Part shown: in pieces, positions 1 through 17,512 of the stretch
Layout of the letters: every line of letters begins with the position of its first letter
Position numbering within the stretch: the first letter of the stretch is position 1
IMG/VR virus record: IMGVR_UViG_3300045988_030775
Location: 1-17,512 of that record
Direction: 5' to 3' (one strand)
DNA length: 17,512 nucleotides
Source: a virus
Position numbers and translations under genes: made by a program
Notes under the pieces: generated by a model
Told to the model about the DNA's origin: nothing
The model's input: the letters and a program-made list of their open reading frames with translations, nothing else
Databases searched by the model: none

Positions 1-119
1 GCGTTTTTTATTTCGTTGTTTTTTTTGTTTTTTTGTGTTGTTCGGCGTGTTGTGTTTTTGTGGTGTGGTATTATATAACTATCAACCAAAGGATGAAGAA
101 AAGGATGGTGGTTGAGATG
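1..119. repeat. Left inverted terminal repeat (119 bp)
   Basis: Hand alignment: 1-119 is identical to the reverse complement of 17394-17512. The first mismatch is at 120 (a) versus the complement of 17393 (t). Confidence 0.97.
50..77 (+). promoter_or_regulatory. Candidate inward-facing promoter inside the left ITR
   Basis: TTGTGT (50-55), 16-nt spacer, TATATA (72-77). An alternative extended -10 is TGGTATTAT (66-74). It lies upstream of the first terminal ORF. Confidence 0.4.
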
Positions 120-302
120 ATGTATCGTCAAGACATTGAGAATGAGGTTGTTGATTATATTCGTAACAGTGGTGAGCGTGTTGTGGATTATGATGTTGAT
201 GCTGTTGTGGATTGTCTTGTTGTTATGTATGAGCGTGAGGGTGTTGAGTTTTATCGTTATTGTTTTGAGACTGTGGTTTTTATGAATCGTGTAGTTGAGT
301 GA
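117..302 (+). CDS. Hypothetical small acidic protein (61 aa), the only + strand gene
   Basis: ORF track 33..302. The likely true start is ATG 117, preceded by GGTGG (107-111) and AAGGA (101-105). The upstream part of the track ORF is just the open ITR. All six Arg codons are CGT, and C is rare in this ORF. Confidence 0.6.
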   Translation: MMYRQDIENEVVDYIRNSGERVVDYDVDAVVDCLVVMYEREGVEFYRYCFETVVFMNRVVE

Positions 303-3020: not shown

Positions 3021-4235
3021 TTAAAAGTTCGGCGGCGCACTAGTGCCGTCCCACACATTCAACAGCGAGTAGACGGTATTATAGCGTGTCCCGTATGGCC
3101 CGAACGGAGGCGTATTGAGGATATTGTTATACAGTTGGGTAAGAAATGAAGCATGAGGCACATTCAACGCGCCCGCCGGGCTTTGGTGATAGGCGCTCAC
3201 CCACAGTATTTGCATTTTCGCGTCATCATACGTCTGTGGGTAGCTCTCGTAATCCTCTGCGAACTGGTTTCGCTGACCCTGCCGTGATTCCGTGCGCCGT
3301 GCCCACGTCTGGAATGCCGCAACTTCGTTACCGGTCATTGCCCTGTCGAACGTGCCGCCCGACTCCATGAGCGCGGCAATGCTCGGCGCGGCGGCGGCAA
3401 ACGCCTCATACCCTGCGGCGTCAACCGCTTTCATAGCGTTCAACACCTGTAGGCGGCGCCCAAAACTCCATTGTGCGATGCCGATACCTTGATTGTTTGG
3501 TTCGACAGCATCCCAGCGCAATGATGATTCAACGGTACCGATGACATAGAGCGCGTATGAGCTTTCTCCGTCGCCTACGCTTGGCGTGCTCTGGCCTTGG
3601 TCGGCGTCCGGCTGACCTGTGCCGCCGCGATATGTCCAAGTCTGGGCGGTTGCCTTGTAGAAAACGGCTTGCGACGACGTCGTGCCCGAACCACTGTGAT
3701 ATACGAGATTATCGCCCTGTAGTTGTATCCACGCGGAGATGTCGCCGTCCACGTTCACGCCCGGGTTATTCCCACCTGTCGGATTATCGCCGGATTCCGG
3801 TGGTTCCGGCAATGCCGTGGGATGCAGATAACCGAGCAACTGGGAACCCTTTGCGAGCGGCAACAATTGACGTACGGCGGGCGTCGGGTTTTGAGTCAGA
3901 ACATCGATATTATCGCCCTGAACACCACCCCACACAATGGCTACGTGACTGCCGGGGTAGTTTTGACTGCCGAACCTCCAAAACACGACATCCCCCATGC
4001 CGGGCGTATAATTTTCGTCCTTTTTCTCGAAAACACGCCCCACGGCGGACGTGGTGGGGAACATGGTGTAATTGCCCTCCGCGTAACCTGTCGGCGTGAT
4101 GCAATCACCTAACGAAAGATTGTAATTATCCATACAGTATTTCGCCCATAAATCCCAGCATTGGGCACCGTAAGCCCCGTCCATGTCCCAGTATTGGTTT
4201 TGGGTTCGCTCCAACCATGCCTGTACGTCTACCAT
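3021..4235 (-). CDS. Virion-associated peptidoglycan hydrolase: N-terminal CHAP domain plus C-terminal lysozyme/transglycosylase-like domain (phi29 gp13 position)
   Basis: CHAP signature GAQCWDL ... GSHVAIVW. The C-terminal part has TVESSLRWDAV ... GIGIAQWS, resembling the E-S / G-h-x-Q motifs of lytic transglycosylases. Confidence 0.8.
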   Translation of the reverse strand: MVDVQAWLERTQNQYWDMDGAYGAQCWDLWAKYCMDNYNLSLGDCITPTGYAEGNYTMFPTTSAVGRVFEKKDENYTPGMGDVVFWRFGSQNYPGSHVAIVWGGVQGDNIDVLTQNPTPAVRQLLPLAKGSQLLGYLHPTALPEPPESGDNPTGGNNPGVNVDGDISAWIQLQGDNLVYHSGSGTTSSQAVFYKATAQTWTYRGGTGQPDADQGQSTPSVGDGESSYALYVIGTVESSLRWDAVEPNNQGIGIAQWSFGRRLQVLNAMKAVDAAGYEAFAAAAPSIAALMESGGTFDRAMTGNEVAAFQTWARRTESRQGQRNQFAEDYESYPQTYDDAKMQILWVSAYHQSPAGALNVPHASFLTQLYNNILNTPPFGPYGTRYNTVYSLLNVWDGTSAPPNF

Positions 4236-4244
4236 GATATTAGT

Positions 4245-4274
4245 ATACCCCGTCCGGCGTACCGGACGGGGTAT
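4245..4274. other. Perfect 13-bp stem hairpin abutting parS-1
   Basis: ATACCCCGTCCGG (4245-4257), loop CGTA, CCGGACGGGGTAT (4262-4274). Confidence 0.7.
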
Positions 4275-4289
4275 GTTTCACGTGAAACA
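4274..4289. promoter_or_regulatory. parS: parS-1, perfect consensus ParB/Spo0J binding palindrome
   Basis: TGTTTCACGTGAAACA, 16/16. It sits within the 18-bp palindrome ATGTTTCACGTGAAACAT (4273-4290) and is intergenic. Confidence 0.85.
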
Positions 4290-4299
4290 TGATTATTCA

Positions 4300-4336
4300 T
4301 AAACAATAAGATACCCCACGACAGTAAGCCGTGGGG
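4300..4336 (-). terminator. Rho-independent terminator after the fibre gene
   Basis: Minus strand: CCCCACG, 9-nt loop, CGTGGGG, followed by TATCTTATTGTTTAT. Confidence 0.6.
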
Positions 4337-4356
4337 TGTGGGGTTGGTGAGTATCG

Positions 4357-5259
4357 TCAGACAGCGACAAAATATGTCAAAACTGCCGAAAGATTCAAAT
4401 TTGATTGCGTTGTGGCGTTCGGGCCCGCCTGATCTACGTACGGGTATCCATCGGAGTTGATGCCAAAAAGAAGATGTGCCGGCATGGTATTACCCGCCCC
4501 AACGAAAACATCAAGCAGTTGCCTTAACGCTCCAGCTGGCCTATACCGTGATGGTATGGCCTGTTCTGCCGGATTTAAGCCGACGGCCCAGCCTGTCGCC
4601 GTGCCGGTTATGGTAACACGCAGTGTGACAAGCTTTGCAAGGGGAGAGTAGTAGGCGTGGTAGTCAATATTTGCCCCGTAGACCTTATCGGTAGTATGAT
4701 ATACTTCGATAGGTTCGACCCCCCTTTCCCGCAATGCTTCCAAGGCCGAGCTTATTGTTGATATTTGGGAGGTGTTGGCGTCGATACGGCTGTCAAGCGT
4801 TTTCGCGGTTCCAGAGTATCCGCCCTGTTTGGTAAACGTCGTGTCGGCCTGCGCTTTGGTATACACATTCGTGGCGTCGGCCTTGCCCTTAACCGTGTCG
4901 GATAGTGAGCTGACAGTCCCCTGCAATGCCGTCAACGCGGTATCTTCCGCTTTGCCGTTGATGGTGGACATGAGCGCCTGCGCGGTCTGCGCGGACGTGA
5001 CGCCAAGCGCGTTGAAATACGATTCCTGTTCGGTGATATCCGCTTTATTGGTTTGCGCCAATACGAGCGCATTATCCGCTGTGGTCTTGGCCGTGTTGGC
5101 GGTAGACGTTGCGGTAGTGGCGTCGGTTTCGTTGCGGTACATTTGCGAATCGATTTTGCTCATGTCGCCGGTGTAGTCGCCGCGCCACGATGGCTTATCG
5201 TCCGGGCTGTCGCCGAACTGGCTGAGATTATAGTGTGGGGTTTTATTGATGCTACTCAT
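4357..5259 (-). CDS. Tail fibre / receptor-binding protein (appendage analogue)
   Basis: The N-terminus MSSINKTPHYNLSQFGDSPDDKPSWRGDYTGDMSKID is typical of Gram-positive phage fibre N-termini. The centre is Ala/Thr-rich and helical. Start at ATG 5259 with SD GAGGAA 7 nt upstream. Confidence 0.7.
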   Translation of the reverse strand: MSSINKTPHYNLSQFGDSPDDKPSWRGDYTGDMSKIDSQMYRNETDATTATSTANTAKTTADNALVLAQTNKADITEQESYFNALGVTSAQTAQALMSTINGKAEDTALTALQGTVSSLSDTVKGKADATNVYTKAQADTTFTKQGGYSGTAKTLDSRIDANTSQISTISSALEALRERGVEPIEVYHTTDKVYGANIDYHAYYSPLAKLVTLRVTITGTATGWAVGLNPAEQAIPSRYRPAGALRQLLDVFVGAGNTMPAHLLFGINSDGYPYVDQAGPNATTQSNLNLSAVLTYFVAV

Positions 5260-5425
5260 GGTGAGGTTCCTCGCTTTCATTACTGCGGGCAGGCGTCCCC
5301 GCCCGAACAATATTATAGTTATCGGAATATTGCGTGTCCAGTTGGGCGGCGGCGAGGGCGGCTACCTGCGATTCCAGTGCGGCGATACGGGATGCCAACG
5401 CGGAAACGTCGGGAACGTCAGACAT
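5252..5425 (-). CDS. Small coiled-coil protein, 57 aa (below the ORF-track size cutoff)
   Basis: Hand translation: MSDVPDVSALASRIAALESQVAALAAAQLDTQYSDNYNIVRAGTPARSNESEEPHHE. It fills the gap between two minus-strand genes. Its stop overlaps the fibre start (ATGAGTAG). Confidence 0.5.
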   Translation of the reverse strand: MSDVPDVSALASRIAALESQVAALAAAQLDTQYSDNYNIVRAGTPARSNESEEPHHE

Positions 5426-5430
5426 AAACG

Positions 5431-5979
5431 CTACTTCGTTTCACCCTCGGGGATGCTCTTACCGTACGGGAATTGCGAGCGTCCGGGAAAGTCGCCGGGT
5501 ACGCAATTGTCAACGGCGGTTGCTCGTAAATCATATTCACGCGCAGGCAATCCCAGCGCGTCATACACGGATGCTTCCAATGCCATCTTGTCGTAATCAG
5601 ACCAGAATAGTGCATGATTGCGTGTATTATCATACATGCCGTCAAGCACCGTTTGCAGAGCGTCTTGCCTGCCGTATACTGGAGACCGCGCCAGTCCGGT
5701 GGACTGCGATTGTTCGATGAGCCGGATGAGTTCATCACGTAGGATGGCCATTTGCTTAACGAGGTTATCGGCGATTTGCTGGACGGCGGCGTTATTGTCC
5801 GTAATCGACTGGTTCACCTGCTCGACGAGTGTATTGAAGTCGGACTGCAAGCCATCCAGATTGCACCGGATGCACTCAATCAATTGGAGTGTGGTCAACC
5901 CGTCACGGTACGTGAACGGAACCGACGTGGGAATACGCGCCGGCGGATAGGCGCGTGGCATAAGGGCGTTGACGGACAT
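5431..5979 (-). CDS. Hypothetical structural protein (tail/fibre-associated by position)
   Basis: Start at ATG 5979 with SD GGGAG 5 nt upstream, 2 nt after the preceding stop. I recognise no motif. Confidence 0.7.
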   Translation of the reverse strand: MSVNALMPRAYPPARIPTSVPFTYRDGLTTLQLIECIRCNLDGLQSDFNTLVEQVNQSITDNNAAVQQIADNLVKQMAILRDELIRLIEQSQSTGLARSPVYGRQDALQTVLDGMYDNTRNHALFWSDYDKMALEASVYDALGLPAREYDLRATAVDNCVPGDFPGRSQFPYGKSIPEGETK

Positions 5980-5981
5980 GA

Positions 5982-6776
5982 TTACTCCCATTCTCCATAG
6001 TTATGGCAGTCACTGAAAATTGTATCATACGACCCCCACACCTGCATGAAACACGGTTCGAGGCTCCGCACGATTTCCATGTCCACGTTGATGATGGCCT
6101 GTCGGTACTCCTGTATCAGGCTCATGGCGGACTGGGAGCGGCCCGACGTGTGGGATTTGGTGCTCCCATCCGTAGCGTCGTGTTGCCATTCCGTGCTGGA
6201 TGTACTATGGGACTGAGAAGAGGTATCTTGCGTGCTATGGCTACTGCCGTCCGTATCCGCTTGCGCCTGATTGGCATGAGTCGCGTATCGAGCAAAATCA
6301 CCTTGCACGCCGGTTGCGGGCACTTCCGAGTCGTAGGACTGGGACTTGGTACTACTTGAACTGGTGCCGTCCGAGGAGCTTCGGGTTGCACTATCCTGAG
6401 AGGCGCTGGTTTTGCCGCTGGACTGGGCTACAGTATTGGACAGGCTTTCACTGACCATTTCCATAGTGTTCAATGGGTCATATTTCAACGCTAGCGTCCT
6501 GTAGCGCTCATTGAAATATGGCATGATTTCCGCCATCGTCATCCCCAAGTAAAAAATGAACTGCTGGGCGGTTTCCTGACCAATCTCCCTAAGCGCGTAA
6601 TGGCGGACGATTTTTTCATTCAACTCCGCGCGGTGAGATTCGTTGTAAATCGGGTAATAGTCGGCGCTAAGATGCAGCTTATCATCAGTATCATACCCGA
6701 ATGAAATAAGATTGCCGAGGGTTTCGGTATACTCCCCCGGCGTCGCCATCACATAGGCACTAAAACTCTGTACCAT
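5982..6776 (-). CDS. Lower collar protein (phi29 gp11-like) with a long Ser/Thr/Gln-rich central segment
   Basis: Located after the connector. The N-terminal motif RHYALREIGQETAQQF resembles lower-collar proteins of small podophages. SD GAGAGAGG precedes ATG 6776. Confidence 0.6.
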   Translation of the reverse strand: MVQSFSAYVMATPGEYTETLGNLISFGYDTDDKLHLSADYYPIYNESHRAELNEKIVRHYALREIGQETAQQFIFYLGMTMAEIMPYFNERYRTLALKYDPLNTMEMVSESLSNTVAQSSGKTSASQDSATRSSSDGTSSSSTKSQSYDSEVPATGVQGDFARYATHANQAQADTDGSSHSTQDTSSQSHSTSSTEWQHDATDGSTKSHTSGRSQSAMSLIQEYRQAIINVDMEIVRSLEPCFMQVWGSYDTIFSDCHNYGEWE

Positions 6777-6993
6777 ACGTGGCCTCTCTCGTTTGGTGGC
6801 TAATACGTGCGGCAACGATATCATGATATGTTTTCATTGCAACAACTTGTTTTTTCAGCAGCCCCGCAGCATGTCCGGACATGAGCAAGACCCCGTTTGC
6901 ATAGTTATCCAGGGCCTTTTCAGCCCTACTGATCTTATTGGCGACTTCATACATTTCGCATACAAGTCCTACCATAACGTCACGGGTTATCAT
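6760..6993 (-). CDS. Hypothetical 77-aa protein
   Basis: Its ATG overlaps the connector stop (ATGA), a sign of translational coupling. Confidence 0.65.
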   Translation of the reverse strand: MITRDVMVGLVCEMYEVANKISRAEKALDNYANGVLLMSGHAAGLLKKQVVAMKTYHDIVAARISHQTREATYGTEF

Positions 6994-7949
6994 TGCAATA
7001 CACCTCCGATACCCGCGTCATACGAGGCGGGCATGTCAATATCCGTCGTACCGCTGGCGCTCGAATCCAGCGCGTTGGGTACGCCGGAGCTTTGCGCGTC
7101 CGCATACTCCACCCAGATGTTCAACTGTGGCCATAGGCGGTTGATCTCAGTCGCCGCCGTCTGCCGCGCCTTGAGAAAACTCAATCGGAACACGTCCACC
7201 TTCTCATTGGCTTGCGCCACCTCGTCGGAGATGAGCCGTTCCTTTTTTTCCGTGCCGCTGGACTGGATGCCCAAATATCCTAGTACCTCATTGGTCACTT
7301 GCGTTTTCTGCTGGATGAACTTGTCCAGCAGATAGGGGGTGGTGTTGGGCCACGGTTGGAACATACTACCGGGGTCCAGTGAATCGTAGCCGATAATATA
7401 ATCCTGCCCATCCTGCCGCTGTTGTAACATGTTCTGTACGGTGAGCTTGGTGCGCGGGTCGGCGGTGATGATGGTCGGCAGTTTCAGGCTCTCCAAGTTC
7501 ACGTCATATGCCTTGTCAATGTCGGCGAGGCGTCTCGCATACTGCCATAGGATATCTTTGAAACTCATGCGCATACGATTGTCCCAAATAGGGATGCACT
7601 CTCGGCCCGCCTTGAGTTGCCTGTAATGGTAGTTGACGCCCACCGGCTCGAAGTACGTCGGGTTGTTATACACGTTCAATCGGCCTTGATAACCGGCTTG
7701 CGTGGCGAGGAACCGACCTATGAGTTTGTCTTCGAAGAAGAGCGCGCACCCGTGTTCGCAGAGACACATTTCCAACCATCGTTCATCTACGGTTGGCGGC
7801 AGTCCCCGCCAGCTGAACCGGTTCAATGCCAGTTCGGTCAGCAGATGGCAGTACATTGCGTCAAGGCTGTCGGCGCGTGCCTTGGCGTAATTGCCACGCG
7901 GATGCAACGCGCCGCCCCTACGATTCTGATTTTTCCTCGACCTAGACAT
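6990..7949 (-). CDS. Head-tail connector / upper collar (portal) protein, phi29 gp10-like
   Basis: Motifs NRFSWRGLPPTVDERWLE and GTEKKERLISDEV, about 320 aa, located between the tail knob and the lower collar. Confidence 0.85.
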   Translation of the reverse strand: MSRSRKNQNRRGGALHPRGNYAKARADSLDAMYCHLLTELALNRFSWRGLPPTVDERWLEMCLCEHGCALFFEDKLIGRFLATQAGYQGRLNVYNNPTYFEPVGVNYHYRQLKAGRECIPIWDNRMRMSFKDILWQYARRLADIDKAYDVNLESLKLPTIITADPRTKLTVQNMLQQRQDGQDYIIGYDSLDPGSMFQPWPNTTPYLLDKFIQQKTQVTNEVLGYLGIQSSGTEKKERLISDEVAQANEKVDVFRLSFLKARQTAATEINRLWPQLNIWVEYADAQSSGVPNALDSSASGTTDIDMPASYDAGIGGVLQ

Positions 7950-7964
7950 GCCTCTAGTATAGCA

Positions 7965-10214
7965 CTAGAATAAGATGCCCGGCAATGGGTCGTTATCCGC
8001 CCAATCGGTCACGCCGATATCATCCGGGTTGGTCCATATAGTAGCCCCAGACTCGAACACGCCTTTAATGGTCTGCCGATACTGCTCGGGCAAATCACCT
8101 CGCACGTAACACTCTTGCATCTGCCAGTAGGTGAATTTTGTCATGCATTCCAGCGATTGCGGCGGCGTGATGAAACGCTGGATAAAATACCCGTAACGCA
8201 ACATGTACTCTCCGATGCTCCGCAGAGCTGAGGGTGCGCACGTCTTGAATCGAACCAACACCCCGACAATACCGTTCGCGAGGTTAAAACCGTCTCCGCC
8301 GATGGCGCCGGATGTGGTCGGGGGTGTTAATTGCATCTGCTGTACCTGTGCATTGATGCCCGCAATGGTGTTTTGATAGTCTCCGAACGCGGAACGTTGC
8401 GCGTAATCCGCGTTCATATCCGCCATATTTTGGGCCAACTGGTTTGAAAGCGCTGTAGTCTGAGAGCCGTATGTGTTGGCCTGACTTGTTGTGGCCGCGT
8501 TGGTACTCAGCGAGTTCGCCGTGGAAAGTTGGGCGGCGGTATTGTTGATACTGCGGTTCGCTTCAGTGTTGACACCATTCATGACCGTACCGCCTAATGC
8601 CGATACCGCGCCCCCGACATTGCCCGAAGCGGCGTTACCCGCCACCCCGACCACGCCGTTGACCACGTTATTCAGCTGTGCGAGGTCAGCTCGCTGATTG
8701 TTGATATACGTCGTGTTGTCCAGACTGGTGTTAAGCGAGGTTGCTTGTATCGCGTTATTGGCGTTGCGGTTGCCGATAGCGAGTTTGTTGGCTTGGGTAT
8801 TGTACTGGTTTTGCATGGCCGTGGCCGCAAGAGACTGACTGATGCCCATCTGTGCTTTTTGGTACGCCCAGTCAGCGGACTGTTGACTGTAGGAACGAGT
8901 GTAGGCACTGTTTGCCATTGCCAACTGGGCACCATTGTTGACTATCACAAATTGAGGGAAATTGCTGATGCCAAACGCGGCGTCCAACATTTCCCCGCTA
9001 TCAATGGGCAACCCATTGTTTTTATCAAGAGGAGCGATCTCGCTTGCACCCGCCTTATTGTACCCAACCGGGTAAAAGTTCAAGCGCGCGCCATTGGGCG
9101 CGTAATTATGCACCTCTCTGATAACCAGATTATCGCTTTGGATATTTTCGGGCTTATAGGTGATATTAGTGCCATTCAAGCAAGTGCATTCAACAGTAGA
9201 ATAGGGGTAGCATTTGAGTTTTTTAAGGTTTTTGTAACGTTTAGGGATATTAAAATTATCACGAAAATCATTAATGGTAATAATGTCTTCATATCTGCTG
9301 GGCGCATTTGTGGCCGACTGGGGGAAACGGTAGATACGATTATTTAATTCCGAAGGGAGTGTTTTCCCAAACAGCTTATCTACGACATAGCCGGATTGCT
9401 TAAGAAAGTCATCATCTAAAGAGGGTATCATGTACATGTTTACAATACCCTGTGTTATCCATGAAAAAGCAGAGCCCAATCCCATAAACACTTGGATAGA
9501 CTGGATATCCTTAAAGTACAGTATTTCAGCACCGTTAGCCATGTTCTCAAACAGAGAGCCGCCCGCAGTAGTGAGAGACGGTTTTTCCTGACTGCCCGCG
9601 TCCGCTGACAAATCTACCGTGCTCACGACTATTACGCCGTAATTCAGATTTTTCCCGTCCATGCTGATAAGAGACTTGTATTGTTGGTTTACCGTCACCA
9701 TTTCACTACCGGTGTCCAGCCCTTCGGGTAGTGCGAGGTAACTGCGACCATAATCGGTCATCTGGTTTTCGTTGGCAATGCCGATATGGCCTCGCACCAC
9801 ATAACATGAACCAAACCTAAGTACATGCTGGAACGACTGCCAAACGTCCAACTGTACAGTGAGCTGAGTCGTGTACGCATTGATGTAATCCACGTGGTTG
9901 ATGAAATAATACCAATACCGTGGCGCCTCCAAGTCGGGGTAATCGTTATACACCACGACATAGTTGTAGTTGGACGCCTCGTTAAATGGCAGTTCGACGC
10001 GCACGGGTTGGCCGAACATGTGCATGACTCCATGCACCCTGTCAATGCCGGGCCGTCGGTCAAACCATTCCTGTTGTTTCTGCGGTGATTCGAACCGGGC
10101 TAGGTCACGGTAACTGCTATCCCACGGCACGTTACAGAGTTTCAGCGACGTGTTGGGCGTCCATTGAGCCCAGTTAAACGTCGCCTCGACGTTAGGGTTG
10201 ATATCTCTCAGCAT
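7965..10214 (-). CDS. Distal tail / tail knob protein (phi29 gp9 position)
   Basis: 749 aa from ATG 10214 (MLRDINPNV), with SD AAAGGGA. The track start 10256 lies inside the parS palindrome. The gene follows the capsid gene as in phi29. Confidence 0.65.
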   Translation of the reverse strand: MLRDINPNVEATFNWAQWTPNTSLKLCNVPWDSSYRDLARFESPQKQQEWFDRRPGIDRVHGVMHMFGQPVRVELPFNEASNYNYVVVYNDYPDLEAPRYWYYFINHVDYINAYTTQLTVQLDVWQSFQHVLRFGSCYVVRGHIGIANENQMTDYGRSYLALPEGLDTGSEMVTVNQQYKSLISMDGKNLNYGVIVVSTVDLSADAGSQEKPSLTTAGGSLFENMANGAEILYFKDIQSIQVFMGLGSAFSWITQGIVNMYMIPSLDDDFLKQSGYVVDKLFGKTLPSELNNRIYRFPQSATNAPSRYEDIITINDFRDNFNIPKRYKNLKKLKCYPYSTVECTCLNGTNITYKPENIQSDNLVIREVHNYAPNGARLNFYPVGYNKAGASEIAPLDKNNGLPIDSGEMLDAAFGISNFPQFVIVNNGAQLAMANSAYTRSYSQQSADWAYQKAQMGISQSLAATAMQNQYNTQANKLAIGNRNANNAIQATSLNTSLDNTTYINNQRADLAQLNNVVNGVVGVAGNAASGNVGGAVSALGGTVMNGVNTEANRSINNTAAQLSTANSLSTNAATTSQANTYGSQTTALSNQLAQNMADMNADYAQRSAFGDYQNTIAGINAQVQQMQLTPPTTSGAIGGDGFNLANGIVGVLVRFKTCAPSALRSIGEYMLRYGYFIQRFITPPQSLECMTKFTYWQMQECYVRGDLPEQYRQTIKGVFESGATIWTNPDDIGVTDWADNDPLPGILF

Positions 10215-10239
10215 ACTATCCCTTTCATAAAGAAGGGAG

Positions 10240-10255
10240 TGTTTCACGTGAAACA
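10240..10255. promoter_or_regulatory. parS: parS-2, perfect consensus, core of a 30-bp palindrome (10233-10262)
   Basis: AAGGGAGTGTTTCACGTGAAACACTCCCTT. The 16-mer TGTTTCACGTGAAACA matches 16/16. Confidence 0.85.
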
Positions 10256-10264
10256 CTCCCTTTT

Positions 10265-10292
10265 ATTATATCGCAGATTAGGCGACTGTCAC
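10265..10292 (-). promoter_or_regulatory. Strong sigma-70/SigA-type promoter reading into parS-2 and the tail gene
   Basis: Minus strand: GTGACA (10287-10292), 16-nt spacer, TATAAT (10265-10270). The predicted +1 is near 10257-10259. Confidence 0.55.
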
Positions 10293-10405
10293 AGTGCTCT
10301 GACAGCTGACACCGAACAGCGCGGCCGTCAGCTTGGTGGAACCGGCGGCCACTCCAGTGACTAGGCCGGTATTATCCACTAGGGGTTCGCGTCATCAATC
10401 ATCAT
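10278..10405 (-). pseudogene. Scar of a decayed Big_2-domain gene (phi29 gene 8.5 position)
   Basis: SD GGAGG (10410-10414) precedes ATGATG and an 8-codon ORF, MMIDDANP-stop. In the -1 frame the sequence reads LVDNTGLVTGVAAGSTKLTAALFGVSCQSTVTVA-stop. That aligns with the capsid C-terminus TVSESGVVTGVKAGSSSVTATLFGVSGKKGVTVTAAA. Confidence 0.55.
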
Positions 10406-10420
10406 CCAACCTCCGGTATG

Positions 10421-10458
10421 ACAAAGCCCGGAGCGCTCACGTGGCTTGCGCTCCGGGC
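10421..10458 (-). terminator. Rho-independent terminator downstream of the capsid gene
   Basis: Minus strand: GCCCGGAGCGC, 11-nt loop, GCGCTCCGGGC, then TTTGT. Confidence 0.55.
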
Positions 10459-10480
10459 CTTGTATTGCATCTCGCCGTGA

Positions 10481-10508
10481 GAGAGGGTAGCCAGCCAGCT
10501 ACCCTCTC
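10481..10508. other. 11-bp stem hairpin immediately after the capsid stop codon
   Basis: GAGAGGGTAGC (10481-10491), loop CAGCCA, GCTACCCTCTC (10498-10508). Confidence 0.6.
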
Positions 10509-10514
10509 ATTATA

Positions 10515-12251
10515 TCACGCGGCCGCTGTCACGGTCACGCCCTTCTTGCCGGATACGCCGAACAGCGTGGCGGTGACGCTGGACGAGCCCGCCTTGACGC
10601 CCGTAACAACACCCGACTCGGACACGGTGGCGTTGTCTGAGGTGTCGGATGTCCAAGCGGCTTGCATGGTCACATCGGCGGTTCGCCCGTCAATCATGGT
10701 CGCCGTAGCGGTCGCCTGTGCCGTATGTCCCACGGTCACCGCCGGGACGGTCACGTCAATGGATGCGATGATCGACGGGTTGAATCCGATGACACCAGCA
10801 CCGACCACCGGCACGTTCAGGGCGGCGGATACGGTGCCCGGCACTTCCGGCGTTGCCGGATCCGTGTACAGGGCGGTCGCCGTAACCGGAATAGTGATGT
10901 TCGGCTCGTCAAGGCCGACCACCAGCACGCCGGTGGGCGAAATGTATGTATAATCGCTCTTCGACCTGGCGGTGTCGCCGATACGATATTCGACAGCATC
11001 CGAGCGGAACGTGGCCGCACCCTCGTTGGAGATGGTCGTATCGGCGGTGACCTGTACCGCTCCGCCACGCGCCACGCTGTCCGGCGTGGTCGCGCCTCCT
11101 CCGTACATGGCGAGTCTGAGCTGGAACGTCGGCGTCCCGGCCGTCGTGCCGGTCGGTGTCACCATCTTGGAGGTAGACCCCGCGCCCGTCCAGAACATCA
11201 CGGCCGGGGCGAAGCCGGACACTGAAATGATGTGCTGGACATGCAGATAATGGTTGACTGAATTGATATTGACCGGATTGGTTTGCTGGGTCATCTCGTT
11301 GATAACGGGAATGTCGATAAGGAATTTATCAGTGGTCAGAATGGCTTGCACGCCATCCATGCCAAACCTGTCCTGCGGGATGGTGATAATCCGGTCAATG
11401 GTCGGCTCCGCATCCGTGCGCTGGAACACCGTTGCCAGACCCTGAACATCAAGCGCCGACTTGACTTCGGGGGAGCAGAACAACACAAGCTCATCCGGGC
11501 GGGCAAACGTCGGCATGTGACGCGCATTGTACCGAGTGGATACGAATTTCAGTGTGTCGGCCCATGCGCGAATCTGGCGCAACATGTCGCGAGCGTCGGT
11601 TTCCGAACTGCCCATGTCGTTCAAATCATTGTTCATATGGACGCGCCAATAGCCGCCCAGTTTCGCGTATTCCACGAACTGGTGGCACATGGCCTCAAAC
11701 AAGTCAACCTCGGCGGCATTATAACAGGAGGTGAGAATCTGCGAGGTGAGCGAAGCTAGGCCGGTTTCAGAGGCGAAAGCACGCTGGAGCGTCTTGTCAT
11801 CCGTGGTAGCGGGGTAGAAGTGGGCAAAGTCAAGACGGTGGTAGAGCGAATCCACGTCGATTTTCCACTTGCGGAAATTATCCGCGCCCAGGTATTCCGC
11901 GTCCGGGTCGTACACCTGAGCGAGTGGCATACCCACGGCGATTTCCTGCCACGTGTCGCCAAACACCTGAGATGCGCGCTGGAACACGCTCAGTGGATTA
12001 TTCCAGCGCCACGTGTTCACATAGGTGCCGCCGATACGGTTCACCAGAGCCGAATAAAACTCGTTCTTGAGCTGGGTGGATGACATGAGGGTGGCCATCT
12101 GCCTGTCCATGTTCATCTGAGTGGCCGAGGGCATACGTCGCTGATATTCGGGGGATGCCTCGTTGCGAATCATATTGAGAATCTGCGCATTGTTGAATTC
12201 GGTGAGCGGTCGCAACTGCTGCTTCGGCGTCACCACTGGAGTGGTCGGCAT
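10515..12251 (-). CDS. Major capsid protein with a C-terminal bacterial Ig-like (Big_2) domain, phi29 gp8-like
   Basis: 578 aa following the scaffold gene. The C-terminal ~80 aa (VTVGHTAQATATA...VTGVKAGSSSVTATLFGVSGKKGVTVTA) has the Big_2 pattern, and phi29 gp8 also carries a BIG2 domain. Confidence 0.8.
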   Translation of the reverse strand: MPTTPVVTPKQQLRPLTEFNNAQILNMIRNEASPEYQRRMPSATQMNMDRQMATLMSSTQLKNEFYSALVNRIGGTYVNTWRWNNPLSVFQRASQVFGDTWQEIAVGMPLAQVYDPDAEYLGADNFRKWKIDVDSLYHRLDFAHFYPATTDDKTLQRAFASETGLASLTSQILTSCYNAAEVDLFEAMCHQFVEYAKLGGYWRVHMNNDLNDMGSSETDARDMLRQIRAWADTLKFVSTRYNARHMPTFARPDELVLFCSPEVKSALDVQGLATVFQRTDAEPTIDRIITIPQDRFGMDGVQAILTTDKFLIDIPVINEMTQQTNPVNINSVNHYLHVQHIISVSGFAPAVMFWTGAGSTSKMVTPTGTTAGTPTFQLRLAMYGGGATTPDSVARGGAVQVTADTTISNEGAATFRSDAVEYRIGDTARSKSDYTYISPTGVLVVGLDEPNITIPVTATALYTDPATPEVPGTVSAALNVPVVGAGVIGFNPSIIASIDVTVPAVTVGHTAQATATATMIDGRTADVTMQAAWTSDTSDNATVSESGVVTGVKAGSSSVTATLFGVSGKKGVTVTAAA

Positions 12252-12275
12252 GATGGGAAAAATCCTTCCTGATTA

Positions 12276-12617
12276 TTAGTCCTCAAACAAATCATCGAAC
12301 GTACTGTAAGCGCCGTTGTAGTCATCGTCTGTCATTTCAGCCGATTCCGGCGTCGCGTCGCCGTCCGGGCCATCGTTCAACACGTGGTCTGCGGCGGCGT
12401 CACGCATTGCCTCAATGGTTTTGGATAGTTCCGCCACGGTCGCCTCCAAGGCGCTCAACCGGTTGGCCATGTCGGCGGCTTTATCCTCGCCCGCGTCTTC
12501 CGGTTCGCCATTGTCCTGCGTTTCCGGCTCCGGGTTCGGCGTATTATCGTCGAGCGGCCCGGCGTCCGGCTCGGTGCCGGGCGTGGTGTCCGGCTCGGTG
12601 TTTTCGGTATCGTCCAT
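12276..12617 (-). CDS. Scaffolding protein candidate (acidic, helical core)
   Basis: Very acidic, with Pro/Glu/Asp-rich ends and the helical segment ANRLSALEATVAELSKTIEAMRDAAA. It lies directly upstream of the capsid gene. ATG 12617 follows SD AAGGGG. Confidence 0.6.
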   Translation of the reverse strand: MDDTENTEPDTTPGTEPDAGPLDDNTPNPEPETQDNGEPEDAGEDKAADMANRLSALEATVAELSKTIEAMRDAAADHVLNDGPDGDATPESAEMTDDDYNGAYSTFDDLFED

Positions 12618-12637
12618 AATCACCCCTTAAAGTAAGT

Positions 12638-12665
12638 GGCATGACGGCAATCACGCCGTCATGCC
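12638..12665. other. 11-bp stem hairpin upstream of the scaffold gene
   Basis: GGCATGACGGC (12638-12648), loop AATCAC, GCCGTCATGCC (12655-12665). Confidence 0.6.
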
Positions 12666-12803
12666 GGGTTGCTAGGCTGTGCGGGTTCCCTCGCCGTCGC
12701 TGGGCGCTGGCCGCGCACGTCTACATCCGACCGAATCGCCTTACCGACTTGCCTTACGGTCGGGCCATCGAATCGACTTGGGACGCACACCCCGCTACCG
12801 ACT

Positions 12804-12812
12804 ATTATAGCA
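12804..12812 (-). promoter_or_regulatory. Candidate extended -10 promoter (TGCTATAAT) overlapping the polymerase stop codon
   Basis: The minus strand reads TGCTATAAT, and the TAA stop of Pol lies inside the hexamer. There is no good -35. It would start a ~175-nt leader for the late operon. Confidence 0.35.
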
Positions 12813-14265
12813 TAAAAATATGGCCATCATCATTGAGATGACGTGACCCGGGTAGGAACTCATCATAGGGGATGGGAGCGGCGCGATGCACGCCACTCAA
12901 ACGCATTACCGTGTCGCCGTCTGTTTCCACGCCGCAATATTTGCGATTGCCGAGGATACGGAGCCTCTCATAGGTGTGGTCGTTTTTCCACGCGCCTAGT
13001 TTCCGGTCATCTGCTTCGATACCCATAGGCGCGTCCAGCCCGTCCAATATCATGCCGTCGGTGTCGGAGTAGAGCACGCGTTCTGCGTTCGCGTTCATGG
13101 CGCGAGATAGTATTTGCCGTCCGTAAGCGCTGACATACGCGGCGGTCGGCAACCATGCCAGACTGTTGGCCGACTCGGGTTTGTCCACGGTAAAATCCAC
13201 ACCACCATCCACGGACGGTTTCGGATGCAACATGGGACGGTAGAGCGAGGCGCCGAATTTCCCCACCAGCGAGTTTAGTAACAGTTTCGCCATCTGCTTG
13301 CGCTCCCCGGTCGCGGTTTGTTTCACGTGAAACCATTTGTCCACGTATGCATAATATAACCCATGTGACTTGCGGAACTTCCAGCCACCGACATACTCCC
13401 ACACGTGGATGTCATAGTTTTCGGTCAGCGTCTCCCAATCCACATCCGCGACCGGCATGGCAACGACGCCGAGCGTACTATCCAAGCGTTCTCCCTCATA
13501 CCCCCATACGGGTAGGATATTGGTGAGCGTCGCCGTTTTCCCCGTCTTCAAGCGCGCATCAAACGCGATAACATCGACATGGAGCGGATAATCATTGTCG
13601 TGTCGATATTCGCCGTCGTACCATATGGGTGAGCCTACCGGCATGGGGGCATCACGCATGATACTCGGGTAGAGACTGTTCACATCCCAGCTTCGGCAGT
13701 CCCGGTATTCGCCCGTCTTGCTGTGTACTATCGCCCCATAGTAGGCGGGGCGCATCCGATGATAAGCCTCTTTATCCAATGGCGGGAAATGACGCTTGAA
13801 TCCAGCGTAATCCCCGTCTATATAGTCGGTCATCGCCATAGATGCTATCGTAGTGCCCCTAAGGTTCAGGGCGGCGCATTCCTGTGCGATGTTCCACGTG
13901 GTTTCCAAGTCATCCGCACCGCCGAATGTTTCACGTGAAACATTCAGGCCATCATCACGTGTGACATTGCGCACGTCCATAAAATCCACGGTGATGCCGC
14001 CCATGCGCACGCGAAAACCGTAGAAGTGGCCGCGAATGTTGAACGTTCCCCAAACGCCGTCCTTGGCTGGATTCGATTGCAAGGGGAGTCGTGTCAATAG
14101 TTCGGCGGCTATGGGCTTGATGTCCTGCCATCCGTGGGCGCACCATACGCGCGTGTGATAATCGAGCATGGTAAGCCGGATGACGGCGTTCGCCGTCAAT
14201 GGTTCCATGCCGTCATCCGTCAATAGTGTTGCGCCGTCTGTTGCCGCCGTTCGACGCTCTTTCAT
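12805..14265 (-). CDS. Family-B DNA polymerase, protein-primed (phi29 gp2-like), compact at 486 aa
   Basis: Motif A WDVNSLYPS, motif B KLLLNSLVGKFG, motif C YSDTDG, KxY-like NRKYCG, and Exo III YIDGD. Exo I and Exo II look atypical (see findings). Confidence 0.9.
   Translation of the reverse strand: MKERRTAATDGATLLTDDGMEPLTANAVIRLTMLDYHTRVWCAHGWQDIKPIAAELLTRLPLQSNPAKDGVWGTFNIRGHFYGFRVRMGGITVDFMDVRNVTRDDGLNVSRETFGGADDLETTWNIAQECAALNLRGTTIASMAMTDYIDGDYAGFKRHFPPLDKEAYHRMRPAYYGAIVHSKTGEYRDCRSWDVNSLYPSIMRDAPMPVGSPIWYDGEYRHDNDYPLHVDVIAFDARLKTGKTATLTNILPVWGYEGERLDSTLGVVAMPVADVDWETLTENYDIHVWEYVGGWKFRKSHGLYYAYVDKWFHVKQTATGERKQMAKLLLNSLVGKFGASLYRPMLHPKPSVDGGVDFTVDKPESANSLAWLPTAAYVSAYGRQILSRAMNANAERVLYSDTDGMILDGLDAPMGIEADDRKLGAWKNDHTYERLRILGNRKYCGVETDGDTVMRLSGVHRAAPIPYDEFLPGSRHLNDDGHIFML
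13319..13334. promoter_or_regulatory. parS: parS-3 (15/16; 14-bp core intact) inside the polymerase ORF
   Basis: TGTTTCACGTGAAACC. On the coding strand it encodes WFHVKQ. Confidence 0.75.
13927..13942. promoter_or_regulatory. parS: parS-4, perfect consensus inside the polymerase ORF, core of a 22-bp palindrome (13924-13945)
   Basis: GAATGTTTCACGTGAAACATTC. It encodes LNVSRETF. Confidence 0.85.
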
Positions 14266-15344: not shown

Positions 15345-15782
15345 TTACTTGCGCTTGTTTTCTGAGGCCAATTCGAGGTCAAAGAACTTATAACCACGGC
15401 GGCTCTTCTTTTCCACCACCTTGAGAACAAGCGGGTGCTCCCACGTGTCCGGCGTGCCGAAGATGGCGAACAGGTTACCAAAAGCGTGCGCCAGCGCGGG
15501 GGAGGCGGCGGCAAAGTCGCCCTCCTCCGCGTGGATGACAACACGGGTAGATGAGTTGATTTCACCGGTCTCTTGGTTGACCACCTCAACGGTCTGCGCA
15601 AGCACGTTGGTCACATGCAATAGCTCATTAAGATGTTCGTCCACCTTGTTGGCTGTCTGCATGGCGTTGTACAGCGCCATTTTACCATCCATAGTAGAGG
15701 TGTCGAAGAAATGGGATACGGCGTTAGCGCCGTTTGCCGCGAAATTGTTGCCGTTTGCTGTGGTCAGTTCGTTGTCAGCCAT
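15345..15782 (-). CDS. Early protein, 145 aa; candidate ssDNA-binding protein by position only
   Basis: Clean ORF with SD AAGGAAGG, lying just upstream of the TP-Pol module. The function is a guess from replication-module context. Confidence 0.6.
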   Translation of the reverse strand: MADNELTTANGNNFAANGANAVSHFFDTSTMDGKMALYNAMQTANKVDEHLNELLHVTNVLAQTVEVVNQETGEINSSTRVVIHAEEGDFAAASPALAHAFGNLFAIFGTPDTWEHPLVLKVVEKKSRRGYKFFDLELASENKRK

Positions 15783-15812: not shown

Positions 15813-16127
15813 TTAATTATTTTCCTCGGAGATGATATCATCTTCAACCACGTTGCCATTAACCGACCCCGGATAGTTGATAATGGTATCATCCCCAAAT
15901 TCGCAATTAGCCCAATAGATTGCCTCGTTCATGCGCGTCACCTGCGCATGGTATTCGGCGGACATGGGGAGCATGTCCCTGTTAATCTTACGGGCTTTTT
16001 TCATAGCCGTGTCAGCTGTGCGACACGCGCCGTTGACAACCACTTCGGTGTCCACGAGTTCGCCGTTTTCACTGCGCGTAACACCGCGCACAATACTATA
16101 GTGCTTGGCTCGCTTGATGTATGCCAT
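15813..16127 (-). CDS. Hypothetical early protein, 104 aa
   Basis: Start at ATG 16127 (MAYIKRAK), 7 nt after AAGGCGG. The track start 16202 overlaps the upstream gene. Confidence 0.65.
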   Translation of the reverse strand: MAYIKRAKHYSIVRGVTRSENGELVDTEVVVNGACRTADTAMKKARKINRDMLPMSAEYHAQVTRMNEAIYWANCEFGDDTIINYPGSVNGNVVEDDIISEENN

Positions 16128-16146
16128 AGTCATACCGCCTTTTTTC

Positions 16147-17162: not shown

Positions 17163-17396
17163 TCACACCCACCGTTCTCCATAAGTCCTATAAAATTCCT
17201 TAAAATCAAAATTACGATAATACTCAAAACCATCATCCAAGTCAACAAAAGAACTCATCGTAATCCAACGGCCACACATCCCGTCATACATTTGAAATTG
17301 ATAATCAACCCCACAGTAAGCGCAAATCGCCTCACGCCACCGAAAACGACGGTTCAACCCAGTGAACCCGTCAACAACAGTAAAATAATGCCACAT
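17163..17396 (-). CDS. Hypothetical first early protein, 77 aa
   Basis: The likely start is the ATG forming the last 3 nt of the right ITR (17394-17396), using the same SD as the left-end gene. The track N-terminus is the open ITR. Confidence 0.6.
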   Translation of the reverse strand: MWHYFTVVDGFTGLNRRFRWREAICAYCGVDYQFQMYDGMCGRWITMSSFVDLDDGFEYYRNFDFKEFYRTYGERWV

Positions 17397-17512
17397 CTCA
17401 ACCACCATCCTTTTCTTCATCCTTTGGTTGATAGTTATATAATACCACACCACAAAAACACAACACGCCGAACAACACAAAAAAACAAAAAAAACAACGA
17501 AATAAAAAACGC
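17394..17512. repeat. Right inverted terminal repeat (119 bp)
   Basis: Reverse complement of 1-119 with no mismatch. Confidence 0.97.
17436..17463 (-). promoter_or_regulatory. Candidate inward-facing promoter inside the right ITR (mirror copy)
   Basis: Same sequence as 50-77 because of the ITR. It would drive the minus-strand early operon. Confidence 0.4.

Follow-up and report, generated by a model that had tools for sequence, protein, structure and literature searches.

Four chromosomal-type parS centromere sites in a phi29-like gut podophage: probable recognition of phage DNA by host ParB

Why would a small phage of lytic type, encoding no partition proteins, carry several copies of a bacterial chromosomal centromere? 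The question is raised by a viral genome of 17,512 nucleotides (the window, that is, the whole stretch of DNA analysed here), in which the 16-bp palindrome TGTTTCACGTGAAACA occurs with 0 mismatches at positions 4274-4289, 10240-10255 and 13927-13942, and a fourth copy, TGTTTCACGTGAAACC, with one mismatch (15/16) and an intact 14-bp core, lies at 13319-13334; the window holds no further match to TGTTTCACGTGAAACA at up to three mismatches. These are the three perfect palindromes and the single 15/16 copy, at the same coordinates, that an initial annotation made from the letters alone had described. In the shuffled-control scan that it had proposed, dinucleotide-preserving shuffles gave a mean of 0.12 matches (maximum 2) against the four found, and 0 of 200 reached four. 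The half-site GTTTCAC appeared 10 times in the window versus 2.65 expected, eight of these occurrences falling within full sites, which leaves no enrichment beyond the four. All of them conform to a chromosomal-type parS, defined as a 16-bp palindrome fitting TGTTNCACGTGAAACA, three at 16/16 and one at 15/16. Numbered along the 17.5-kb molecule, copies 1 to 4 stand at 24%, 58%, 76% and 80% of its length; copies 3 and 4 lie in the polymerase gene polB, in different reading frames, and the other two in intergenic DNA.

The linear podophage context with protein-capped ends, which had been presumed at the outset, was corroborated, as the window represents a complete phi29-like, protein-primed podophage genome bounded by 119-nt inverted terminal repeats. 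Pfam matches to Podovirus_Gp16, Phage_connector, phi29_gp9_C, Phi29_MCP, DNA_pol_B_2 and Phi29_Phage_SSB make up the full phi29-type gene set. The main features are the following.

1-119, no strand: left inverted terminal repeat, 119 nt, 100% complementary to 17394-17512
17394-17512, no strand: right inverted terminal repeat, perfect 119-nt partner of 1-119
7965-10214, minus strand: tail-knob (gp9-like) gene, by profile matches, with its ATG start at 10214
10515-12251, minus strand: phi29-type major capsid protein gene with a C-terminal Big_2 domain, by profile matches
12805-14265, minus strand: protein-primed family-B DNA polymerase gene (polB; PF03175, 2.8e-35; phrog_1907, 1.6e-54), containing copies 3 and 4

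A self-encoded ParABS cassette, with a ParA ATPase and a ParB beside the sites, is missing from this genome, in agreement with the lack of parA and parB reported earlier. A Pfam scan of the 24 ORFs (E up to 1 for small ORFs) detected no ParA or ParB domain in any of them, with zero matches to AAA_31, CbiA, ParB_N and HTH_ParB, and other DNA-binding domains likewise went undetected. Having four parS copies and no partition genes of its own, the phage most likely borrows the ParB of its host. Alternatively, the motif may be the target of a phage-encoded protein or a different host DNA-binding protein, its identity to parS being a convergence, and several early ORFs without recognisable function could supply such a factor. 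We regard this as improbable, since a match at 16 of 16 positions to the most widely conserved centromere of bacteria would hardly arise by convergence and the scan revealed no candidate domain. Moreover, a 172-aa early protein is without profile similarity to actinobacterial ParB (hhalign probability 0.07%), a 106-aa early protein is similar to p6 of phi29, which binds DNA without sequence specificity, and genomes devoid of parS still retain all core early genes.

The equation of the motif with the chromosomal parS consensus was upheld by a scan of bacterial chromosomes, in which the identical 16-mer was found in or next to the gidB-parA-parB cluster of Actinomyces, Frigoribacterium, Glutamicibacter and a Coriobacteriaceae genome; the scan covered a capped random sample of genomes in which Bifidobacterium was not represented, and the match comes from other Actinomycetota. 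The phage sites share with chromosomal ParABS centromeres the same 16 bp and their multiplicity, chromosomal copies being grouped within a few kb, but they reside on a virus, far from par genes, some of them embedded in essential coding sequence or forming a terminator stem. Several lines point to Bifidobacterium as the probable host: all of the cellular proteins closest to the endolysin come from this genus (61-72% identity over the full length), the nearest cultured phages infect it, and one phage genome, MT836241, combines a BP1-like backbone with a fibre module of the type seen in the window, including parS copy 1. Bifidobacterium does not sporulate. All Actinobacteria possess ParABS (PMC4255298).

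The sites and the structures surrounding them are arranged as follows.

4245-4274, minus strand: hairpin with a 13-bp stem, ACCCCGTCCGG...CCGGACGGGGT, directly after copy 1, then TATACT and the CHAP ATG
4274-4289, no strand: parS copy 1, 16/16, within the 18-bp palindrome ATGTTTCACGTGAAACAT, in the intergenic DNA that separates the stop of the fibre gene from the CHAP tail-lysin start
4313-4337, minus strand: terminator-like hairpin after the fibre gene, on the coding strand just upstream of copy 1
10233-10262, minus strand: 30-nt perfect palindrome AAGGGAG[parS]CTCCCTT surrounding copy 2, preceded by TATAAT
10240-10255, no strand: parS copy 2, 16/16, in the gap separating the major capsid gene region from the tail-knob gene
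13319-13334, no strand: parS copy 3, 15/16, in polB codons W311-F-H-V-K-Q316
13927-13942, no strand: parS copy 4, 16/16, within a 22-bp palindrome (13924-13945), in polB codons N108-V-S-R-E-T113

Copy 2 counts as intergenic because the tail-knob gene starts at the ATG at 10214, which has AAAGGGA upstream, and not at the GTG of the listed ORF (7965-10256). As RNA, the 30-nt palindrome around this copy folds into a stem of 13 bp closed by an ACGU loop (-21.1 kcal/mol, z -6.1), with UUCUUUAU behind it; this is a terminator-like hairpin, and its flanking stem covaries among relatives (GGGGAG/CTCCCC, and AGGAG/CTCCT in L024). It is the only copy with the stem-loop and U-tract at a gene end that characterise an intrinsic terminator, copies 3 and 4 lying within coding sequence and copy 1 having no U-tract. 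Hence, copy 2 seems to have a dual use, since the terminator-like hairpin that follows the capsid gene region incorporates it in its stem.

These locations could suggest a transcriptional switch, in which ParB or another protein, bound at or spreading from copy 2 and the copy upstream of CHAP, would keep late genes silent and so postpone lysis. Directly ahead of copy 2, at 10292-10265, a promoter-like GTGACA-16-TATAAT match would fit this proposal, as would the position of copy 1 only 39 nt upstream of the CHAP start. However, the promoter-like match belongs to a duplicated, terminator-like unit consisting of the end of a Big_2 domain, TATAAT and a hairpin: the 3' flank of the capsid gene carries TATAAT and a hairpin, and this unit is repeated at 10233-10270 with parS as the stem. 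Promoter-like matches overall numbered 23, which does not exceed the 17.7 +/- 4.8 of shuffles, and two of the four sites, together with the counterpart of copy 2 in 33 relatives, are buried deep within coding regions. We therefore give the switch little credence.

Could the palindromes act solely as hairpins, as terminators, mRNA stabilisers or structures of the displaced single strand during protein-primed replication, without any protein partner? The fold of copy 2, with its U-tract and covarying stem, and that of the 22-bp palindrome at copy 4 (-17.6 kcal/mol, z -3.9) are in line with this idea, whereas copy 3 folds no better than shuffles (z -0.6). A hairpin needs no fixed sequence, yet the same 14-16-mer recurs at five non-homologous locations in the clade and in an unrelated clade of Clostridium phages, and variants in relatives are mostly single, non-compensated changes. 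A role as hairpins alone is accordingly very improbable.

The two sites in polB allow selection on the DNA to be distinguished from selection on the protein. Given the encoded peptides, the probability of the observed codons was 1.7e-4 for site A (copy 4), which is spelled with minor codons, and 5e-2 for site B (copy 3), jointly 8e-6, and 0 of 3000 synonymous resamplings yielded two cores. Third-position conservation was 0.89-0.90 in the site codons versus a background of 0.78, and the 14-nt core of site A ranked sixth among 1448 windows; within the gene, the polB sites are among the best-conserved 5-10%, which is not an extreme level. The residues that the sites encode are variable polymerase positions, between the invariant W311 and K315, and the single mismatch of copy 3 is dictated by TGG, the codon for the invariant Trp. 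On this codon evidence, the sites are under selection as DNA.

Loss of the sites in close relatives had been named beforehand as an outcome that would speak against a function. The relatives did not bear this out: among 80 IMG/VR genomes with polymerases 87-94% identical, 76 keep at least one site at no more than one mismatch, and 43 have three or four. Copy 4 is perfect in 46 and within one mismatch in 67 of the 80, copy 3 is within one mismatch in 47 of the 80, with T5>C as its commonest variant, and copy 2 is perfect in 59 of 78 when two alternative locations are pooled. Copy 1 is found at no more than one mismatch in only 14 of the 66 relatives covering the region, where it lies downstream of differing fibre genes and is always followed by the same conserved hairpin (4245-4274 in the window), TATACT and ATG. 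The third site of the clade, which is copy 2 in the window, occupies two non-homologous places in two subclades, intergenic in 39 genomes and within the tail-knob coding sequence (R-F-V-S-R-E-T-Q) in 33 that carry a divergent tail-knob allele (54-57% amino acid identity), which indicates turnover.

Positions 1, 16 and 5 (T>C) account for the bulk of the mismatches, variation that the definition of a ParB site permits, position 5 being left degenerate in Bacillus-type parS. At the equally synonymous third positions of site A, position 4 varies in two sequences, position 13 in one and position 16 in 26, while T>C at position 5 occurs in 17, all of these being counts of sequences and not of independent events. 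This pattern of a fixed core with tolerant outer positions and a tolerant position 5 is the one expected from ParB specificity. Three relatives (L060, L061 and L063) have instead, at the site A position, a symmetric variant, the 22-bp palindrome GAACGTCTCACGTGAGACGTTC, generated by two compensatory synonymous pairs; it would fit a dimeric binder of altered specificity and also a hairpin without partner. In the more divergent subclade L059-L080 the sites decay, and four genomes are without any, so that selection on the sites is not universal.

Taken together, we consider it probable from the sequence data that the four motifs are genuine parS, kept by selection for the recognition of phage DNA by host chromosomal ParB. 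Following established ParABS biology, CTP-bound host ParB dimers would load at the four sites after injection and slide outward, and with sites distributed in this way over 17.5 kb the whole genome would be within normal ParB spreading distance. ParA, and possibly SMC, might then treat the ParB-coated phage DNA as they would an origin region. In cells that grow slowly or are in stationary phase, unintegrated, non-lysing genomes could in this manner be kept positioned and be passed on together with the host chromosome. Among the roles listed initially, such a carrier state is the one that we infer to be most likely, while entrapment in spores is unlikely given that the predicted host does not sporulate; in a host that forms no spores, the carrier state would take the place that Spo0J-dependent forespore entrapment has for phi29.

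The same sequence evidence would also be expected if the sites served as a sponge, with hundreds of replicating genomes, each bearing four strong sites, titrating ParB away from the host origin and disturbing segregation, SMC loading or ParA-dependent DnaA control to the benefit of lytic growth. The several perfect-consensus copies per genome, presumably of high affinity, would suit titration. So would the isolate genomes: the polymerase had no match in any of the 185,579 species-representative bacterial genomes searched, and there is thus no direct sign of carriage in isolates, which also counts against the carrier state. A further point against the reading that we favour is that the four cultured lineages of Bifidobacterium podophages contain zero parS sites, which implies that the sites are dispensable for infection. 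Nothing in the sequence separates titration from hitch-hiking on host ParB, but a related device in the CI55P1 phages (see below) conserves a single site, and in the documented case of phi29, which concerns segregation and not titration, weak and imperfect sites suffice (PMC2731898). We judge the sponge unlikely, and recognition by host ParB for maintenance remains our preferred reading.

That preferred reading is best understood as a further instance of the device described for phi29 in 2005. The Spo0J sites of phi29 that the initial annotation had mentioned are indeed documented, the phage having five parS sites and Spo0J being involved in segregation of its genome into the prespore (PMC2731898, citing Meijer et al. 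2005, EMBO J 24:3647). In PZA, a member of the same group, we detected five parS-like sites with 1-3 mismatches each. The present phage shares with phi29 and its relatives the linear, protein-primed genome, several host-type parS, the lack of phage parA and parB and host ParB (Spo0J) as the proposed partner. It differs in that three of its four copies are perfect consensus and two lie within the polymerase gene, and its polymerase is only ~35% identical to those of the phi29 group over ~60% of the protein. Since the predicted host is a non-sporulating actinobacterium, forespore entrapment could not be the pay-off, and no clear Spo0A-box system is apparent: TGTCGAA occurs six times versus 2.65 expected (9 of 200 shuffles reach six), always in coding regions and at no obvious promoter. 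The plasmid prophages P1 (parABS) and N15 (sopAB) likewise combine an extrachromosomal phage genome with centromere-like sites, which in N15 are also dispersed over a linear genome, but both supply ParA and ParB themselves and rely on private centromere sequences, whereas this phage encodes neither protein and presumably copies the host sequence.

To our knowledge, studies on the capture of host parS by virulent phages are confined to one system, that of phi29 and Nf in Bacillus subtilis, where the capture serves spore entrapment. A full-text literature search returned no match for a phage parS working with host ParB, and the words parS, Spo0J, ParB and spore are absent from a 2024 review of phi29-like phages (PMC11476376). 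The device appears here in a stronger form, with perfect sites and four of them per 17.5 kb, in phages that most likely infect a non-sporulating genus relevant to health. This raises ParB hijacking outside sporulation, whether for a carrier state, silencing or titration, as a testable question with a possible bearing on the reported association of 'lytic' phage genomes with bacterial cells (PMC12768965), and it shows cleanly, in a natural setting, how binding sites turn over under selection within coding DNA. More tentatively, we speculate that a common gut clade of 'lytic-type' Bifidobacterium podophages is inherited as a protein-capped linear episome by means of host-centromere copies alone, without a phage partition protein, and that the sites arise anew again and again, even within essential genes and the stems of terminators, because the phages need them to persist in the gut. 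Were this so, phi29-like phages would in general have a carrier-state strategy independent of sporulation, namely mimicry of host parS, and parS could mark which 'virulent' phages persist inside cells.

The clade is uncultured and very frequent in human gut data, with 114 IMG/VR contigs and early-gene protein clusters of up to 1,697 member sequences. A second group of phi29-like gut phages, the CI55P1 phages of Clostridium_AQ (C. innocuum group), also carries a perfect parS in polB in the same V-S-R-E-T frame, although with one site instead of four, at another polymerase position, in a genome of ~40% GC and with a host from the Bacillota. This genus is presumably spore-forming, in which case it would fit the phi29 model directly. 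The CI55P1 site is perfect in 12 of 13 close IMG/VR relatives and has one mismatch in the remaining one.

The genome carries three perfect copies of the 16-mer TGTTTCACGTGAAACA, at 4274-4289 (copy 1), 10240-10255 (copy 2) and 13927-13942 (copy 4, site A), and a further copy with one mismatch, a C as last base, at 13319-13334 (copy 3, site B), exactly as the initial annotation had reported them. No other match with up to three mismatches occurs anywhere in the window, the half-site GTTTCAC is not enriched past the four full sites, and dinucleotide-preserving shuffles yielded a mean of 0.12 matches, none of the 200 reaching four. Among at least 120 matches listed from a search of one genome per bacterial species, the 16-mer was present in many phyla; Bifidobacterium is absent among these matches, and the parS comparison was made with other Actinomycetota. 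All four Actinomycetota loci inspected hold it inside or beside the gidB-parA-parB cluster. Actinomyces culturomici has three copies, within parB or adjacent to it; Frigoribacterium and Glutamicibacter carry the motif in the gidB-parA interval, and in a Coriobacteriaceae genome it comes after gidB. The motif is the consensus sequence of chromosomal centromeres.

A perfect 119-nt inverted repeat forms both ends of the window, and the minus strand holds essentially all genes.

Genes of the window; all except the 106-aa early protein were identified with Pfam and PHROGs
1862-2989, gp16 packaging ATPase
5982-6824, lower collar
6990-7949, connector
7965-10214, tail knob, gp9-like
10515-12251, major capsid protein, phi29-type, with Big_2 domain
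12805-14265, family-B polymerase, protein-primed
15345-15782, single-stranded DNA-binding protein (SSB), phi29-type
15813-16133, minus strand, 106-aa early protein adjoining the SSB gene, with an acidic tail (AlphaFold pLDDT 73)
Also present: holin, amidase endolysin and CHAP tail lysin

The terminal repeat and this phi29-type gene set therefore identify the window as a complete phi29-like podophage genome. Two inward-reading ORFs lie at its ends (33-302, plus strand; 17163-17480, minus strand), and they share their first 29 residues, MCCSACCVFVVWYYITINQRMKKRMVVEM, because both begin inside the terminal repeat, which encodes about 28 of these residues; divergence follows. An Rfam search of the whole window, parS sites included, returned neither pRNA (prohead/packaging RNA) nor any other family above threshold, the lone match being a sub-threshold c4-a1b1 within the capsid gene (10898-10947); if the phage has a pRNA, it is unrecognisable by current models.

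Families of ParA (AAA_31, CbiA) and ParB (ParB_N, HTH_ParB) matched no ORF by Pfam or PHROGs, small ORFs being searched even at E = 1, and profile comparison was also negative, which bears out the earlier claim that the phage encodes no ParA- or ParB-like protein. Two conserved early proteins are of unknown function. One, of 172 aa, for which only a poor, low-confidence model was obtained (pLDDT 49), showed no profile similarity to actinobacterial ParB. The other, the 106-aa protein, has no Pfam or PHROG match, and its top structural match in the PDB is the phi29 histone-like protein p6 (8pw4_A; probability 0.97, E 0.12); from its predicted fold it is probably a p6 analogue, p6 being a non-specific DNA-binding protein. 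Overall, the finding is real, and the proposal of parS sites used by host ParB is supported.

Conservation of the sites, a check proposed in the initial annotation, was found among 80 relatives fetched from IMG/VR, with polymerase identities of 87-94% at the protein level and 82-93% at the DNA level: 76 of the 80 keep at least one site with no more than one mismatch, and 43 keep three or four sites. Of the 80, 46 have a perfect site A and 67 have it with at most one mismatch; for site B, which an invariant Trp codon caps at 15/16, 47 of the 80 reach that level. Near the tail-knob start, 59 of 78 relatives have a perfect site, and between the fibre and CHAP genes only 14 of 66 relatives have one with at most one mismatch. 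Two of the three frames through the palindrome are stop-free, and the two copies in the polymerase gene use exactly those two, encoding W-F-H-V-K-Q (copy 3) and N-V-S-R-E-T (copy 4). Given the peptide and phage codon usage, the probability of the sequence is 1.7e-4 for site A, where minor codons (GTT, TCA, CGT, ACA) are used, and 5e-2 for site B, and two cores never occurred together when the gene was resampled synonymously 3000 times. Together with the shuffles, this codon test rules out an artefact of chance or composition. Third positions are conserved at 0.89-0.90 in the site codons vs a gene average of 0.78, and the 14-nt core of site A ranks sixth of 1448 windows by invariance; the conservation signal at the polymerase sites is moderate, within the top 5-10% of the gene. 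Moreover, the residues encoded by the sites occupy variable positions in an alignment with Bifidobacterium phage polymerases. A protein-coding constraint behind these sites is ruled out by the different frames, the minor codons and the variable residues.

Read along the minus, coding strand, copy 1 occupies the gap from the fibre gene to the CHAP gene, with a terminator-like hairpin before it and, after it, a hairpin with a 13-bp stem, TATACT and the ATG. Copy 2, located on this strand after the capsid region and before the tail-knob gene, is the centre of a perfect 30-nt palindrome, AAGGGAG-parS-CTCCCTT (-21.1 kcal/mol as RNA, z = -6.1), and UUCUUUAU comes next, making up a terminator-like unit. 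Some 250 nt upstream of copy 2, after the stop codon of the capsid gene, there is another unit of TATAAT plus hairpin, its stem unrelated. Within the capsid/tail-knob spacer (10260-10515, ~300 nt) are a leftover duplicate of the final part of the Big_2 domain of the capsid protein (…LFGVS…VTV…stop) and a TATAAT-plus-hairpin unit; promoter-like matches at 10538-10509 and 10292-10265 both belong to this duplicated unit, and the spacer differs in length by hundreds of bases between relatives.

Among the relatives, the tail-knob site is found in either of two places that are not homologous. It forms a window-like intergenic terminator stem in 39 genomes, and in 33 genomes with the other tail-knob allele (54-57% identity) it lies inside the knob gene, ~100 nt further on, where it encodes R-F-V-S-R-E-T-Q, the window counterpart reading R-F-E-S-P-Q-K-Q. 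Likewise, the fibre/CHAP site was found after several unrelated fibre genes. Re-creation of the same 16-mer elsewhere is what a selected binding site would be expected to display, and neither a hairpin nor a coding constraint can account for it. Codon choice, third positions, variable residues and relocation all show that it is the DNA sequence that is constrained, rather than the encoded proteins. Mismatches cluster at both ends of the motif (positions 1 and 16) and, as T>C, at position 5, which is degenerate in Bacillus-type parS, and the inner positions, equally synonymous, are almost invariant; this spectrum of tolerated change fits predicted recognition by ParB. As for the genomes themselves, the 80 relatives, ~90% identical elsewhere, carry two tail-knob/collar alleles (knob 96-99% or 54-57% identity, collar 88-98% or 69-73%) and have mosaic fibre and CHAP genes too, which indicates that modules are often exchanged within the clade.

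In a divergent subclade the sites are decaying, and four genomes lack any; no phage gene was found among the relatives whose loss tracks that of parS. In L060, L061 and L063, which are related genomes with every parS copy lost, the site-A position still has a perfect palindrome of 20-22 bp (L060:3952-3971, L061:1412-1433, L063:3946-3967). There GAATGTTTCACGTGAAACATTC has become GAACGTCTCACGTGAGACGTTC through two compensatory pairs, both fully synonymous, the L060-type sequence being CGTCTCACGTGAGACG. By our estimate, such a compensated palindrome would arise by chance in ~1 in 50-100 cases; the three genomes form a single lineage. The binding specificity could have changed here, or this site could serve separately as a hairpin; GAACGTCTCACGTGAGACGTTC has no second copy in any fetched locus.

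Host parS on a phi29-like phage has been described before. The initial annotation had mentioned Spo0J-binding sites in phi29, correctly so, since phi29 carries five parS sites and Spo0J is involved in segregation of its genome into the prespore (PMC2731898, citing Meijer et al. 2005). PZA, of the phi29 group, has five parS-like sites with 1-3 mismatches. CI55P1, a phage of Clostridium_AQ (C. innocuum group) belonging to a gut phi29-like clade separate from that of the window, holds one perfect parS inside its polymerase gene (4504-4519), in the V-S-R-E-T frame (S-V-S-R-E-T-M) like site A, and among 13 close IMG/VR relatives this site is perfect in 12 and has one mismatch in the other. No parS was found in the cultured phi29-like phages of Bifidobacterium, Arthrobacter, Curtobacterium, Microbacterium and Actinomyces that were checked, and the cultured B. 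dentium phage BD811P3 yielded no relatives in IMG/VR. Capture of host parS is thus recurrent but patchy among phi29-like phages, and the window clade is a third one with this trait, not described before. It is the same kind of system as in phi29, a host parS on a virulent phage, and not a new kind; what makes it a clearer case than phi29 itself is that its sites are perfect, occur several times, are conserved and turn over.

Three observations point to Bifidobacterium as the probable host. The endolysin has as named cellular homologues only full-length amidases of Bifidobacterium (61-72% identity), and among cultured phages those closest in polymerase and capsid all infect this genus. In addition, the human-faecal contig MT836241.1 is 81% identical in DNA to Bifidobacterium phage BP1 over 8.5 kb, with its BP1 fibre region replaced by a segment (9778-11024) 82.5% identical to window 4129-5361, comprising the fibre gene, one perfect parS (copy 1) and the start of the CHAP gene. 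A BP1-like backbone with a window-type fibre module implies recombination in a shared host between two phi29-like clades whose polymerases are only ~35% identical. According to a review of more than 100 actinobacterial genomes, several of Bifidobacterium, ParABS is common to all Actinobacteria (PMC4255298). Spo0A boxes, which would suggest a host that sporulates, showed only a weak excess: six TGTCGAA heptamers vs 2.65 expected, a number reached by 9 of 200 shuffles, at 3344, 3501, 10989, 14438, 15701 and 16441, all in coding regions and none at an obvious promoter.

What the genomes establish is a set of sites selected as DNA, matching a host-type centromere, in a phage without recognisable partition proteins. 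In ParABS systems, CTP-bound ParB dimers load at parS and slide over several kb. Host ParB dimers would likewise load at the phage sites, whose positions at 24%, 58%, 76% and 80% of the 17.5-kb genome would bring all of it within their reach; that the terminal proteins might retain the clamps is speculative. In Bacillus, the pay-off of phage parS is forespore entrapment. In a non-sporulating host, unintegrated phage DNA might be inherited or positioned while lysis is postponed, and we favour such carrier-state inheritance or positioning as the pay-off. Caution is advised, however, since cultured Bifidobacterium podophages manage without parS, the divergent subclade is losing its sites, with four genomes devoid of them, and no phage of this kind, as a sign of carriage, was found in the bacterial assemblies of GTDB species representatives. 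The main alternatives are that the sites titrate host ParB or that ParB silences phage genes, and sequence alone cannot separate these from a carrier state. The case is of interest because a host parS on a virulent phage here occurs in a clade very common in the human gut and with a probable host that forms no spores. In a 34.9-kb NCBI contig (L092; GCA_001292545.1, CYGL01000165.1), a related phi29-like genome adjoins unrelated genes, a minus-strand block without any recorded family match; the contig is probably a chimeric metagenome assembly rather than an integrated or dimeric form.
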